DNA of 43,171 bases from a virus (IMGVR_UViG_2939121850_000002:1-43171), one strand, 5' to 3'; shown: positions 4,955 to 42,163, numbered from the stretch's first letter. Program-made: numbers and translations. The notes: generated by a model from the letters alone, not told the origin.

Positions 4955-5248
4955 TCAGTCATTACTGATAGCGCCATAGCGTGAGCGGTAATTACGCAGG
5001 CGCGGGTCAATTTCAGGGAAGTGGGTATATGTGGCTTTGCGGAATGGTCGGATTGATGTCTGGTAAATTCGCTCGCGTTCTTCTTTCTCTGCAAGCCATA
5101 TACAGTGGCGAAATTCCTTTTCCTCTTTCGTTTCCTGCGGTAGCGACATTATCCGATCGTAGTTTTTTCTGAATTTATCCAGCACCTCCGATACGGAATT
5201 GCCGGAACAGCGGCGCGCGTCATCCGCACCATACAAAGGCGCTGGCAT
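4955..5248 (-). CDS. Hypothetical early-left protein (97 aa)
   Basis: ORF immediately downstream of ssb on the same strand. Confidence 0.4.
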   Translation of the reverse strand: MPAPLYGADDARRCSGNSVSEVLDKFRKNYDRIMSLPQETKEEKEFRHCIWLAEKEERERIYQTSIRPFRKATYTHFPEIDPRLRNYRSRYGAISND

Positions 5249-5261
5249 GTTTTTCTCCTGA

Positions 5262-5768
5262 TTAAATTGCGTGAATAGCGTGACGAGGGAAGGGGAGAGT
5301 TACTGGTGCAAAGGGTATATCGTCGTCAAAATCCATCGGAGGTTCGTTGTGTTGTGCTGGTGATGATTGCTGCTGTGGCTTCTGTGATTGCCTGCTGGCT
5401 GCTTGTTGTTTGCTGTCGCCAATGCCGCCAAGCATTTGCATCACGCCATTAATTCCGACATGAACCTCGGTTGTGTAACGGTCTTGCCCTGACTGGTCTT
5501 TCCACTTTCTGGTTCTCAGCATTCCCTCGAAATAAATCTGATCACCTTTTTTCACATACTGCCCCACGACCTCAGCCAGTTTCCCGGATACAGCAACACG
5601 ATGCCATTCAGTCAATTCCTTTTGCTCGCCAGTATTTTTATCTCGCCATTGTTCTGACGTGGCTATTGTCAGGTTAGCGAACGCTGTTCCTGATGGTGAG
5701 TATCGAACTTCCGGGTCTTGTCCTACCCGACCAAGGATAATCACCTTATTTATCCCGCGAGAACTCAT
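5262..5768 (-). CDS. ssb: Phage single-stranded DNA-binding protein (SSB) with an atypical 15-aa C-terminal extension
   Basis: OB-fold N-terminus ([20 protein letters not shown]), Gln/Pro-rich linker, MDFDDDIPF acidic tip; the frame then continues [15 protein letters not shown] before the stop. Confidence 0.85.
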
Positions 5769-6232
5769 TTGCTCCACCTCTTGCCAGTTTTTATGTTGCT
5801 TATAATTGATTGAGATACACCCATGTCTTTTGCTATCTTGTACTGACTCTCTTTTTCAGAGAGTCTTTTCCTAATTTCTATAACCTGCCACTCTGTTAAT
5901 TTTGCACCATGATGAGCATGACCTTTCTTGGCTCCACGATGCCTTCCTTTTGCTATCTTGTCGTCCATATTTTCTTGCGCGCTACCTAAAAAGAGATGTT
6001 CAGGATTAACGCAGCATGGGTTATCGCATTTGTGGCAAACCATCTTCCCAGATGGAATGGGGGAGTGATAAAGCTCAAAAGCAACCCGATGAGAAAGCAT
6101 TGTTACGCCAAAGGCTACAAATTTTGTGTATCCTCCTTTGTTTTTTGAATAGGTAGACTCCCAGCATCCTGTTGTTTCATTAACTTTGTAGCTGGACTCG
6201 AATCTTTTAATAATTCCGTCCAAGTGAGACAT
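5765..6232 (-). CDS. HNH homing endonuclease with C-terminal helix-turn-helix
   Basis: [21 protein letters not shown] motif plus a C-terminal HTH-like segment ([23 protein letters not shown]); inserted between the annealing protein gene and ssb. Confidence 0.75.
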
Positions 6233-6940
6233 TTATGCCGCCTGTTTTAGTTCGTTAACTCTGATGTTCATTACCTGAACGCATTTAGCCTGCGCCTCCT
6301 CGTTGCCAGCCATTAATTGCCAGTCACGCTGATAACGCTCGATGAGTTTTTTCTTGTCAGTTTCTGTTGACGCATAATCGCTGAAGTCTTTCAGGATTTG
6401 TTCGCAGTCAACCGATGGAGATTTCTGGTTGGTATTTTCTGGTGATGGTTTGTTATCTGATGCTGGGATTGCCCAGCCCGGCAGCGATGGAGGGAGCCAG
6501 TAAAATCCTGTTCCATCCTTCAGTTTTGCCCTGTGCCACCCCTGCTTTTTATCGAGAGATGTTTGTGCGAAACCTTCCTCAAGGTTATACAGATACCGAC
6601 CGATTCCCCATTGAACGGCAGCGCGCTTCATTGCACCGGAACGACCACCTTTGACGGCTTCTACCTGCGTGTTTTCAGCAGCATCCCATTTGGTTACCCA
6701 TTCGGAATCAATCTTTATTGATATGCCGCATTCAACGCCGCCGTTGTTGGGAATATCGCGGTATTCATTGCGCCATCCTGCTTTGCCGCAAACATCGTCC
6801 AGGCGTTTCATGATTGCCCGGTTCGTTACATAAGCCAGCACCATAGCCCACACCTTGCCATCGCGTGTTTTACCGCTTTGCTGTATTCGCCATTCGATAT
6901 CTTCAGGGCTGAATGGCTCATCGAATTTATTCAAATTCAT
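6233..6940 (-). CDS. Rad52/Rad22-family single-strand annealing protein (Sak-like recombinase)
   Basis: Resembles the Rad52 N-terminal domain (AYVTNRAIMKRLDDVCGKAGW ... AVQWGIGRYLY); occupies the bet/erf position of the early-left operon. Confidence 0.6.
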   Translation of the reverse strand: MNLNKFDEPFSPEDIEWRIQQSGKTRDGKVWAMVLAYVTNRAIMKRLDDVCGKAGWRNEYRDIPNNGGVECGISIKIDSEWVTKWDAAENTQVEAVKGGRSGAMKRAAVQWGIGRYLYNLEEGFAQTSLDKKQGWHRAKLKDGTGFYWLPPSLPGWAIPASDNKPSPENTNQKSPSVDCEQILKDFSDYASTETDKKKLIERYQRDWQLMAGNEEAQAKCVQVMNIRVNELKQAA

Positions 6941-40769: not shown

Positions 40770-41963
40770 TTAATCAACCTTCCCATCAAGCCAGTCCGCC
40801 CACCACTGCATCATTTCTCTGCGCTTATCGAGATACTGAGCATGGTTGTAAATTCCACGCACAGAACCGCCGTTGGCATGTGCTAGTTGCACTTCAATGG
40901 CGTCGGCAGGCCATTCGTGCTCGTTCATAATCGTGCTGAATTCATGCCTGAATCCGTGACCGCTTTCCAGACCTTCATAGCCGATTTGTTTGATCACAAG
41001 CAGTACCGCGTTCTCGCAGATTGGCTTCTTCTTATCGTTGCGCCCGGCAAAAACAAACTCTGAGACTGGTTTGGTTATTGAGCTTAGCGTAGTGAGAAGT
41101 TCAACCACCTGGTCTGACATCGGGACCACATGAATTTTGCGTCCCTTCATCACACTGGCGTCGATGGTGATAATCCTGTTTTCAAAATCGACGTTCTTCC
41201 ATAGCATGGAACGAAGCTCTTTCGTTCTTAGGGCTGTGTAGCGTAAAACTTTGGTCGCAATGAGCGATACGATACTTCCTGAAAATGTTGCCAGTGCTTT
41301 GTTGAATGCAGGGATCTGGTCTGCTGGAAGAAACGGGAAGTTCTTCTTGCGGTATCCTTTCATGGCGTCTGCAAGGTCAGGTGCCGGGTTATATTTAGCC
41401 CTTCCGGTGACAATAGCGTAACGAAAAACCTCGCCGCATCTTCTGCGGGCTTTGTTGGCTCGCTCCATTGCACCGCGATCTTCAAATCTGCGGATTACTT
41501 CCAGCAGTTGCATCGGCTCAATATCCTGAATCTCAAGACCGCCGATGATGGGTAAAATGTCGTCATCAAACATTTTGGCAAGTTCAGTTGCATAGCCTAC
41601 TGACCAGACTTGCTTCTTGTGCTCGTACCATTCCTTGTAAATCGCACTAAATGAATTGTTGTTAGACGAAGCCTTTTTCGCCTTTACCGGATCTATGCCA
41701 ACCGAGATGTCTTTCCTCGCAGTCCATGCCTTATCCCTTGCTTCCTGCAAAGTCATAAGCGGATATTTTCCGACAGTCAGGATTTTCTCCTTACCGTCAA
41801 TCTTGTAGCGAAGCTGCCATACCTTTTTCCCTGATACAGGGACATAAAGGTACAGGCCATTACCATCGAGAAGGCGGTATGGTTTTTCTTTCGGCTTTGC
41901 TGCTTCAATCTGCTTAACGGTGAGCATGGGTAAAAATCCGGTGGGTAAAATTATTTTATCCAC
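40770..41963 (-). CDS. intS: P4-type tyrosine integrase (IntS-like)
   Basis: N-terminus (LTVKQIEAAKPKEKPYRLLDGNGLYLYVPVSGKKVWQLRY) is typical of P4-family integrases; transcribed away from argW. Internal Met at 41927 may be the true start. Confidence 0.85.
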   Translation of the reverse strand: MDKIILPTGFLPMLTVKQIEAAKPKEKPYRLLDGNGLYLYVPVSGKKVWQLRYKIDGKEKILTVGKYPLMTLQEARDKAWTARKDISVGIDPVKAKKASSNNNSFSAIYKEWYEHKKQVWSVGYATELAKMFDDDILPIIGGLEIQDIEPMQLLEVIRRFEDRGAMERANKARRRCGEVFRYAIVTGRAKYNPAPDLADAMKGYRKKNFPFLPADQIPAFNKALATFSGSIVSLIATKVLRYTALRTKELRSMLWKNVDFENRIITIDASVMKGRKIHVVPMSDQVVELLTTLSSITKPVSEFVFAGRNDKKKPICENAVLLVIKQIGYEGLESGHGFRHEFSTIMNEHEWPADAIEVQLAHANGGSVRGIYNHAQYLDKRREMMQWWADWLDGKVD

Positions 41964-42088: not shown

Positions 42089-42103
42089 TGGCGTCCCCTG
42101 CAG
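42089..42103. repeat. Prophage attachment core, right copy, forming the 3' end of argW
   Basis: tggcgtcccctgcag; partner of 1312-1326. Confidence 0.6.
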
Positions 42104-42163
42104 GAATCGAACCTGCAATTAGCCCTTAGGAGGGGCTCGTTATATCCATTTAACTAAGAGGAC
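42089..42163 (-). tRNA. argW: tRNA-Arg (anticodon CCU)
   Basis: 75-nt cloverleaf on the minus strand: acceptor GTCCTCT/AGGGGAC, anticodon loop CTCCTAA, T-arm GCAGG-TTCGATT-CCTGC, encoded CCA end. Confidence 0.9.

Follow-up and report, generated by a model that had tools for sequence, protein, structure and literature searches.

Which partners can an SSB recruit once its docking tip no longer lies at the end of the protein? The free C-terminal Phe of SSB is treated in the field as a universal handle that recruits more than 12 genome-maintenance proteins. In the viral DNA analysed here (the window, 43,171 nt), the ssb gene encodes a protein in which the conserved DDDIPF tip is followed by further residues. 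An earlier note on this sequence had weighed two explanations for this, the accidental loss of a stop codon and a deliberate, non-recruiting variant. We therefore asked whether the extension is an error, to which gene it belongs, whether it is under selection, and what it may do to the interactions of the tip.

Genomic context and domain organisation of the extended SSB

The longest ssb open reading frame lies on the minus strand and starts with a GTG at 5777 (5262..5777, 171 aa); its residue numbering is used throughout. Translation probably begins at the ATG at 5768-5766 instead, giving a protein of 168 aa (5262..5768, minus strand; PF00436, E=1.8e-36; E. coli SSB 1eqq, E=2.4e-57): this ATG shares the sequence ATGA with the stop of the upstream HNH gene and is the start used by PGAP in a 99.8% identical E. 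coli chromosome. Translation of the minus-strand frame placed the Phe156 codon at 5310-5312, followed by 15 extra codons (5265-5309) and a TAA stop (5262-5264), in agreement with the earlier note that the frame runs 15 residues past DDDIPF.

With its neighbours, ssb forms the early-left recombination operon of a P22/HK97-like prophage, in which the order is Rad52/Rad22-family annealase, HNH_3 endonuclease, ssb and abc2, all on the minus strand. The recombinase paired with ssb is a single-strand annealing protein of the Rad52/Rad22 family, annotated as 'Erf-like' (6233..6940; PF04098, E=4.8e-26). Between its gene and ssb lies an HNH_3-type endonuclease gene (5765..6232; Pfam, PHROG and PGAP) that is absent from phage HK75, whose homology begins at query position 49. 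Immediately downstream of ssb is abc2, encoding a P22-type anti-RecBCD protein (4955..5248; PF11043, E=5.6e-63; PHROG). The abc2 ATG is located 13 nt beyond the ssb stop, with the RBS AGGAG in between. A motif scan of the whole window revealed no further tail-like or tip-like motifs elsewhere in it.

By fold, linker and tip, the protein is an E. coli-type SSB, and the only defining feature that it lacks is the terminal position of the tip. The OB-fold domain for ssDNA binding and tetramerisation comprises residues 9-115 (5433..5753, minus strand), as delimited by Pfam, AlphaFold2 (AF2) and conservation. The PF00436 match covers residues 9-107, E. coli SSB is matched, and a confident β-barrel was modelled with a pLDDT of 83-93 for blocks within residues 11-110. 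A Q/P-rich, intrinsically disordered linker follows (residues 116-145; 5343..5432, minus strand); pLDDT was <50 for residues 119-151 and the linker was the most variable segment in the alignment described below. The acidic SSB-Ct tip (residues 146-156; 5310..5342, minus strand) has the sequence of the E. coli SSB tip and carries the motif MDFDDDIPF, with 98% column conservation in the extended clade. Bacterial-type SSBs end with this Phe. Here the tip is internal, and Phe156 is followed by the 15-residue C-terminal extension, or 'cap' (residues 157-171; 5265..5309, minus strand), identified by translation, conservation and a DNA scan and hereafter referred to as the tail.

The tail had a pLDDT of <50 in the AF2 monomer model and was modelled as disordered, as would be expected of a short linear motif. 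Folding of the tail back onto the OB domain was rejected on the basis of this low-confidence, disordered prediction. No solved structure includes the tail, as all PDB matches, the best of which are enterobacterial SSBs, end at residue 156. At the nucleotide level, neither RNA structure nor a promoter or terminator was found in the tail DNA (fold z-score 0.44; no sites in the region), and these were rejected as the cause of its nucleotide conservation. Recoding to a Phe-terminated product was also rejected, with neither a stop nor a convincing slippery site at the junction; inspection of the junction sequence showed that the sole nearby out-of-frame TAA would replace IPF.

The extension is widespread in phage and mobile-element SSBs

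After the loss of a stop codon, 15 further codons would stay open by chance with a probability of (61/64)^15, or ~0.49. An open frame of 15 codons is not unlikely in itself, and it is conservation that exceeds chance. To determine the distribution of the extension, we compared this ssb with those of phages, bacterial genomes and protein databases. The isolated phage HK75 shares the extended allele with 99.7% nucleotide identity, and the allele is also present in the isolated phages mEp235, mEpX2, epsilon34 and g341c. A second, diverged SSB lineage with the extension, found in ECP1, HZ41 and CP-1639, is only 76-78% identical in DNA. When 5426 complete E. coli genomes were searched with an 84-nt probe across tip, tail and stop (match over at least 80% of the probe length), 296 of them contained the tip-tail junction, in a gene annotated ssb. 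In a database of 5.8 billion proteins grouped into 90%-identity clusters, a tail of exactly 15 aa was present in 110 of the best 120 clusters. These clusters come from Klebsiella, Citrobacter, Salmonella, Enterobacter, Kluyvera, Phytobacter and Pluralibacter, with SPVGLQYGKHRVYAL among their tail variants.

These findings bear directly on the possibility that the extension is private to this genome, through loss of a stop codon, a frameshift or a sequencing/assembly error. An open stretch of 15 codons behind a lost stop would be unremarkable by chance, and nothing else beyond the initial suspicion speaks for such an error. However, the same or nearly the same sequence is present in isolated phage genomes and in hundreds of assemblies made independently, the codon after Phe is GCA, more than one mutation away from the TAA of uncapped alleles, and those alleles differ by an insertion of ~500 nt. 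The stop-codon loss suspected earlier is thus refuted by an extension common to many independently sequenced phages and hundreds of genomes, and a sequencing artefact by its presence in isolated phages and independent assemblies; we regard an error as having virtually no chance of being the explanation. Wide occurrence of the extension in functional phages, which the earlier note had named as an argument against its own suspicion, is what was found.

We then scanned one genome per species and detected residues past DDDIPF in 45 of 79 loci, a proportion biased towards extensions because one search pattern demanded Ala or Ser after PF. Homologous 15-mers were found in Tatumella, Mixta, Proteus, Xenorhabdus (APIGKQYPNHAIYVI) and one Pasteurellaceae species, and 14-mers such as APIGLQYPAIVHCM in Vibrio, Oceanisphaera and Pseudoalteromonas. 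Pseudomonas has different extension families, APLHHLAGA and APISRLLLNII, and a further extension is the 24-mer AWxLLxPIGxLLAxxAPHxARLxA. Most extensions start with Ala-Pro and have a non-polar end. The neighbouring genes were recombination genes (Sak4-like AAA_24, ERF, RecT, Rad52-like, YqaJ or RdgC) for 27 of 45 extended SSBs compared to 3 of 33 non-extended SSBs. Chromosomal-type neighbours, such as an MFS transporter gene, were found next to 2 of 45 extended and 22 of 33 non-extended SSBs, and other neighbours next to 16 of 45 and 8 of 33, respectively. In chromosomal SSBs, Phe is the last residue. An unbiased profile search across 1.84 billion 50%-identity representatives gave, among those with a recognisable tip, 82 with a PF end and 13 with an extension; this is a rough count, since frameshifted, truncated or damaged predictions are frequent among the representatives. 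Collectively, these data identify the extension not as an error but as a trait that is conserved and selected in many SSBs of phages and other mobile elements.

Conservation and selection of the tail

To compare the constraint on the tail with that on the rest of the protein, we aligned 111 extended SSBs that are 65-99% identical to the window protein, and calculated the mean top-residue frequency of each segment and pN/pS pooled over 67 unique genes. The tail was free of gaps in this alignment. The mean top-residue frequency was 0.92 for the OB fold, 0.58 for the linker (entropy 1.56 bits), 0.98 for the tip and 0.87 for the tail, with pooled pN/pS values of 0.20, 0.49, 0.03 and 0.35, respectively. 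Within the tail, L161 was invariant, and P158, V159, T160, P162, F163, P164, R165, H166, I168 and I171 were at least 90% conserved. Two tail alleles differed from that of the window by 5 and 6 synonymous and 0 non-synonymous changes, and comparison with the tail of Enterobacter pasteurii gave 5.0 synonymous changes per 12.5 sites and 1.0 non-synonymous change per 32.5 sites. These substitution patterns support the view that a large SSB clade carries the tail natively and maintains it under purifying selection; in this sense they support a deliberate variant, which the earlier note had proposed as its second option. The pS of the tail DNA was 0.26 compared to 0.55-0.62 in the rest of the gene, which suggests that part of the uniformity among E. 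coli phages reflects recombinational spread and not selection alone.

The tip was the most constrained segment, suggesting that it is still used. This constraint argues that the internal tip may still be read by something, or may be needed intramolecularly. A pN/pS as low as 0.03 points to a stronger constraint than a purely non-recruiting protein would predict, so that of the two outcomes proposed earlier for the tip interactions, changed appears likelier than simply blocked.

An HNH endonuclease gene interrupts the tip/tail junction in Sf6, Huey and their relatives

In Sf6, Huey and their relatives, SSB terminates normally (..DDSDIPF or ..DDEIPF before the stop), and the next gene is a small HNH gene whose product ends with ..KPIYPDE(E/A) plus the tail. 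The HNH insertion at the tip/tail junction of these phages restores the end of SSB, and the tail becomes the C-terminus of the HNH protein. HK75 and Huey have the same DNA up to ..GAACCT and rejoin at ACCAGTAACTC (Pro158). Between these points, HK75 has 32 nt (Pro147-Ala157) and Huey has ~500 nt, which supply replacement codons for the tip, a TAA stop, an RBS and the HNH ORF. The HNH gene is therefore present or absent at one precise site between near-identical alleles, and the same junction was found in at least 19 loci. The HNH protein of this junction belongs to phrog_2340 (PHROG annotation 'endonuclease'; no Pfam match), and its gene is absent from the window. A stop after the Phe codon in homologous ssb genes was found in this neighbourhood only where the ~500-nt HNH cassette is inserted. 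Several results, these junctions among them, show that the phrog_2340 gene was inserted and that the tail is native to ssb.

Consistent with this, an unbiased scan of viral-contig DNA placed the tail-coding sequence at 71 SSB ends, at 19 HNH ends and within 2 degraded ORFs, with no occurrence outside these. In the phages mEp235 and epsilon34, the tail remains on ssb although a gene for an Rv2179c-like exonuclease separates ssb from abc2, and the possibility that the tail DNA is only the 5' region of abc2 was rejected on this ground. The tail was also considered as the C-terminus of P22 Abc1; this was rejected, since Abc1 ends ..RLSRLRKK and has nothing in common with it. Among 80 loci picked solely by a near-identical abc2, the extended SSBs were all behind a Rad52-type annealase, and the Phe-terminated SSBs all had a tail-bearing HNH gene next. 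In an Enterobacter prophage, a 90% identical SSB encoded next to a Sak4-like gene terminates with ..CDDIPF and lacks an accompanying HNH gene, which indicates that uncapped variants of the clade exist and that the tail is not indispensable. Sf6 and Huey are likewise viable phages with an uncapped SSB.

The order of events could in principle be reversed, with the tail native to the phrog_2340 HNH protein and the extended SSBs produced by a deletion that fused ssb to the last 15 HNH codons. Sf6 gp26, the Huey endonuclease and their relatives do end in the tail right behind a normally terminated ssb. However, the PHROG profile does not reach into the tail (positions 8-169 of its 171 are matched by Huey residues 1-139), and the C-termini of HNH homologues found elsewhere read ..IYPEDLKAA, ..IYPENTNA or ..IYPD; on these two observations the tail was rejected as a native part of the HNH family. 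Furthermore, the diversity of SSB tails spans many genera whereas HNH-borne tails are only of the E. coli/Salmonella type and copy local SSB tail variants (AIYAI, AIHAL), and the HNH proteins of the Salmonella loci bear all 15 residues, Ala157 included. We consider an HNH origin very unlikely. A neutral recombination scar would be a different explanation, in which the 45 nt are a mosaic 'boundary sequence' for lambdoid module exchange, translated by accident, and SSB works or half-works despite the tail. The low pS of the tail (0.26 vs ~0.6 in the remaining gene) would fit a scar, as would its near identity across two SSB lineages sharing only 76-78% of their nucleotides, the start of non-SSB homology exactly at the tail (the Sf6 match begins at query position 494) and its dispensability in Sf6 and Huey. 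Against this, distant genera keep the motif and the exact length of 15 aa despite saturated synonymous sites, 110 clusters are without indels in the tail, some tail alleles differ at synonymous sites only, and the tail accompanies ssb even where the downstream module differs. The preliminary substitution counts also point towards an omega below 1 for the tail codons. A scar is an improbable origin for the tail, though less so than a fusion to the HNH gene.

Possible functions of the capped tip

The premise that partner pockets anchor the Phe α-carboxylate is documented. Such a binding site receives the terminal Phe in a hydrophobic pocket, anchors its α-carboxyl on a basic lip and accommodates the Asp residues along a basic ridge (PMC10164576), and in RecO, R132 anchors the carboxyl end of SSB (PMC3152348). 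In the window SSB the α-carboxylate of Phe156 is gone because Ala-Pro... follows. Since docking needs the carboxylate to be anchored on the basic lip, docking of host partners would be lost or much weakened. We infer this loss of host-partner binding by extrapolation from structures and from a bulky GFP fusion (see below); the tail probably alters which partners SSB can recruit.

The reading that we favour, with a probability of about 0.55, is that the tail is a native, selected, disordered peptide that re-specifies the SSB hub, with canonical docking lost or weakened and with tip and tail forming a composite motif for one or more other partners. Because ssb lies in the early-left recombination operon, the capped SSB would be made on infection or induction, and it would coat phage ssDNA like a normal SSB. 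The canonical docking at stake would be that of ExoI, RecQ, RecO, PriA, the chi subunit and RecG. Tip plus tail may then act as one longer linear motif, read by one or more partners that do not need a free carboxylate, and candidate readers would be a partner common to many hosts, or annealases. In this way, the capped SSB may shield the recombination intermediates of the phage from host nucleases and helicases. A role of this kind is in keeping with an operon that otherwise encodes proteins for annealing ssDNA and for neutralising RecBCD.

We infer the existence of an alternative partner, and the genomic neighbourhood gives some indication of its nature. The annealases found with extended SSBs belong to at least four unrelated families, namely Rad52-like, Sak4-like AAA_24, RecT and ERF. 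The same tail family occurring with four unrelated annealase families weakens the idea that the tail is an annealase-specific docking site, and suggests that a specific reader is likelier to be a conserved host factor, or all annealases via the tip, than one phage protein.

Other functions of the tail have to be weighed against the re-specified hub. The tail may be a regulatory C-terminal degron or a removable cap that times or limits SSB activity, either through proteolysis or through trimming that exposes the tip. Non-polar C-termini destabilise E. coli proteins, and ClpX recognises ends of the ssrA type (LAA) and the MuA type (RRKKAI). The ends of all unrelated extension families are non-polar (..AIHAI, ..LLNII, ..HLAGA, ..ARLVA), and an intact tip would suit later exposure. 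However, the central P158-H166 are the best conserved residues of the tail and the last five vary most (A/T167, H/Y169, A/V170), which argues against a pure C-terminal degron, as this would show the opposite pattern; for trimming, we know of no cytoplasmic protease that cuts precisely between Phe and Ala-Pro. Alternatively, the tail may have gained a docking motif for one specific new partner, such as the beta sliding clamp or a phage protein like Abc2 or the exonuclease, with capping as a side effect. PVTLPF resembles the clamp hexapeptide QLxLxL, for example QLSLPL in Hda, the spacing P-[VI]-x-L-x-[FY]-P-[RK]-H is conserved across genera, and the tail is disordered in the AF2 model. Yet the leading Gln of clamp-binding motifs is missing, APLHHLAGA and APISRLLLNII of Pseudomonas do not fit the motif, and the up- and downstream neighbours vary between elements, which argues against a constant phage-encoded partner. 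Both the degron or removable cap and the single new partner appear unlikely to us, although each has a better prospect than a neutral scar.

Implications of a capped SSB class

Among open-access papers and bioRxiv preprints, we found no description of, or experiment on, extended SSBs, and databases annotate the extended protein as plain SSB. The only prior trace that we found is the GenBank note on Sf6 gp26, which records 14 contiguous residues identical to 'E. coli SSB'; this was evidently a prophage SSB of the extended kind. A common and conserved natural SSB class that buries its hallmark Phe may come as a moderate surprise to the specialist. The capped class is present in ~5% of complete E. 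coli genomes and in many mobile elements of Gammaproteobacteria, and a natural class with a buried handle would represent an unexplored phage route to re-wire or insulate the SSB hub.

A broader proposal, which we put forward tentatively and consider possible rather than likely, is that capped SSBs are a widespread, unrecognised weapon or shield of mobile elements directed at the host SSB hub, with a composite motif for a selected partner, and that a homing HNH gene 'uncaps' SSB. If so, ExoI, RecQ, RecJ, PriA and comparable proteins would be denied access to phage recombination and replication intermediates, mixed tetramers with the ~70%-identical host SSB would be possible, and defences that monitor SSB tips or ExoI, such as DRT10 (bioRxiv 10.64898/2026.04.29.721553), would be evaded. 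HNH homing into the tip/tail junction would then be the act of a selfish element.

There are also practical consequences. Predictors of annealase compatibility that use the 'last seven residues', such as ETfinder (PMC13490951), would misread capped SSBs, and where a 'cognate' phage SSB is co-expressed in recombineering, capped and uncapped alleles may behave differently. HK75 and Huey, and more generally capped and HNH-uncapped alleles, provide natural matched pairs for the effect of the cap.

Comparison with known systems

The E. coli chromosomal SSB (1eqq/4mz9, PF00436) has the same OB fold, a disordered Q/P/G-rich linker and an identical tip. It ends at Phe, whereas the window SSB has 15 additional residues and is without the free Phe carboxylate. 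The linker of the window SSB is shorter, and where Klebsiella-type and E. coli SSBs have the Phe of ..VVLFGK.., the window SSB has a Ser. The window ssb is part of a phage recombination operon, in contrast to the chromosomal ssb, which lies beside uvrA or an MFS gene. T7 gp2.5 is a phage SSB that uses an acidic C-terminal tail with a terminal Phe as its partner-docking element; it is reportedly inactivated when the terminal Phe is moved inward, whereas the window SSB naturally keeps its Phe internal.

The closest experimental counterpart of the capped tip is E. coli SSB with GFP at its C-terminus, for which ssDNA binding was normal and ExoI binding undetectable (PMC7293020, Dubiel et al. 2020). 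This SSB-GFP fusion could not be introduced on a plasmid, which is consistent with a dominant-negative effect (PMC7293020). It likewise carries extra polypeptide behind SSB-Ct, but its addition is an artificial, folded domain of 27 kDa, whereas that of the window SSB is a natural and conserved peptide of 15 residues that is predicted to be disordered.

The SSB of phage HK620 occupies the same genomic slot as the window SSB (annealase, ssb, abc2), and its free NDYPPF tip is required to stimulate its annealase, Sak4 (PMC5928155, Hutinet et al. 2018). The HK620 protein thus shows that, in this slot, the C-terminus of an SSB can be of functional importance. The HK620 protein is a distant SSB with a free, divergent tip that pairs with Sak4, whereas the window SSB is host-like, accompanies a Rad52-type annealase and has a capped tip identical to that of the host.

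The nearest relatives of the window locus are Sf6 (gp27 and gp26) and Huey (SSB and endonuclease), which have the same annealase-ssb module. The Huey SSB is 97% identical to the window SSB up to residue 146, and ahead of abc2 these phages have a tail that is identical in both peptide and DNA. Unlike the window SSB, those of Sf6 and Huey are uncapped, as the phrog_2340 HNH gene with replacement tip codons, a stop and an RBS follows after the Phe codon.

An HNH insertion at the tip/tail junction of SSB

Divergence is uneven along ssb. Synonymous divergence (pS) across the codons of the 15-residue tail (window 5265-5309, (-), and homologues) was 0.26, less than half the 0.55-0.62 of the rest of the gene. 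The tail and the leader of abc2, the downstream P22-type anti-RecBCD gene, were also nearly identical across SSB lineages that are otherwise only about 77% identical. These two observations indicate that the 3' end of the gene coincides with a mosaic boundary or a recombination block.

In many relatives, the exact junction between the SSB tip and the tail is occupied by a small HNH gene (phrog_2340), which has no Pfam match. It was located at 1962-2429 in phage Huey (L087), at 2067-2546 in Sf6 (L002) and at about 2965-3450 in L248, and was left uncalled in some assemblies (L248-L250). The insertion itself supplies replacement tip codons, a stop codon and a ribosome-binding site, and the HNH reading frame runs on into the 14-15 tail codons. 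The arrangement looks like an ssb gene split by the insertion of a homing endonuclease.

The window carries an unrelated endonuclease gene on the other side of ssb, an HNH_3-type gene with a C-terminal HTH (5765-6232, (-)), inserted downstream of the Rad52-like annealase gene and upstream of ssb. Its end overlaps the start of ssb by ATGA, and the SSB N-terminus is altered with the insertion, from MASRGVNKV to MSSRGINKV. Phage HK75 has no HNH_3-type gene between its annealase gene and ssb; some related viral contigs, a minority, share the annealase, HNH_3 and ssb order. At the right end of the window, a tRNA-Arg(CCT) gene (42089-42163, (-)) and an adjoining 397-aa ORF (40770-41963, (-)) probably mark the attachment site and integrase of the prophage. 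The window as a whole appears to be a P22/HK97-like prophage that is essentially complete.

Extended SSBs in other contexts

Particular neighbour genes accompany distinct extension families. APIGLQYPA..M-type tails lie near RdgC-like genes in Oceanisphaera, Vibrio and Pseudoalteromonas (L095, L096, L098, L108), one of them on a 45-kb Vibrio plasmid. Among the Pseudomonas loci (L127-L152), every SSB with an APISRLLLNII-type tail is followed by a RecT gene, and APLHHLAGA-type tails adjoin Sak4-like or YqaJ genes.

Two Competibacteraceae MAGs (L118 and L163; ssb from 3001) encode SSBs that continue after DDDIPF, with ARPAALDGLVFPYDGAWFGNGPSNPYKR and ARPVALDGLPW. Both genes lie directly 3' of an MFS transporter gene, a chromosomal-type context, and would encode capped housekeeping SSBs, unless the genome has a further copy of ssb or the assembly is at fault. 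The same transporter gene flanks the housekeeping ssb in many gammaproteobacteria.

Comparison with host and phage SSBs

Residue 60 of the window SSB (171-aa frame; about 5598-5600, ..HRVAVSGKL..) is Ser, as in the extended-clade consensus. In the chromosomal SSBs of enterobacteria the aligned residue is Phe (..VVLFGKL..). This Phe is E. coli Phe60, which contacts ssDNA; judged from this substitution, ssDNA binding by the capped SSB may also be tuned.

The slot upstream of abc2 holds other SSB types. Phages with a P22-type ERF annealase encode a 127-aa mini-SSB there (L005, 2594-2977; phrog_44, E=1.8e-28), an arrangement shared by about 37 of the 80 abc2 loci, and its tip is free and divergent (..YDDSIPF). 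HK620-type loci encode a 195-aa SSB ending in NDYPPF. Capping is confined to the host-like SSB, whose tip (MDFDDDIPF) matches that of the host exactly.
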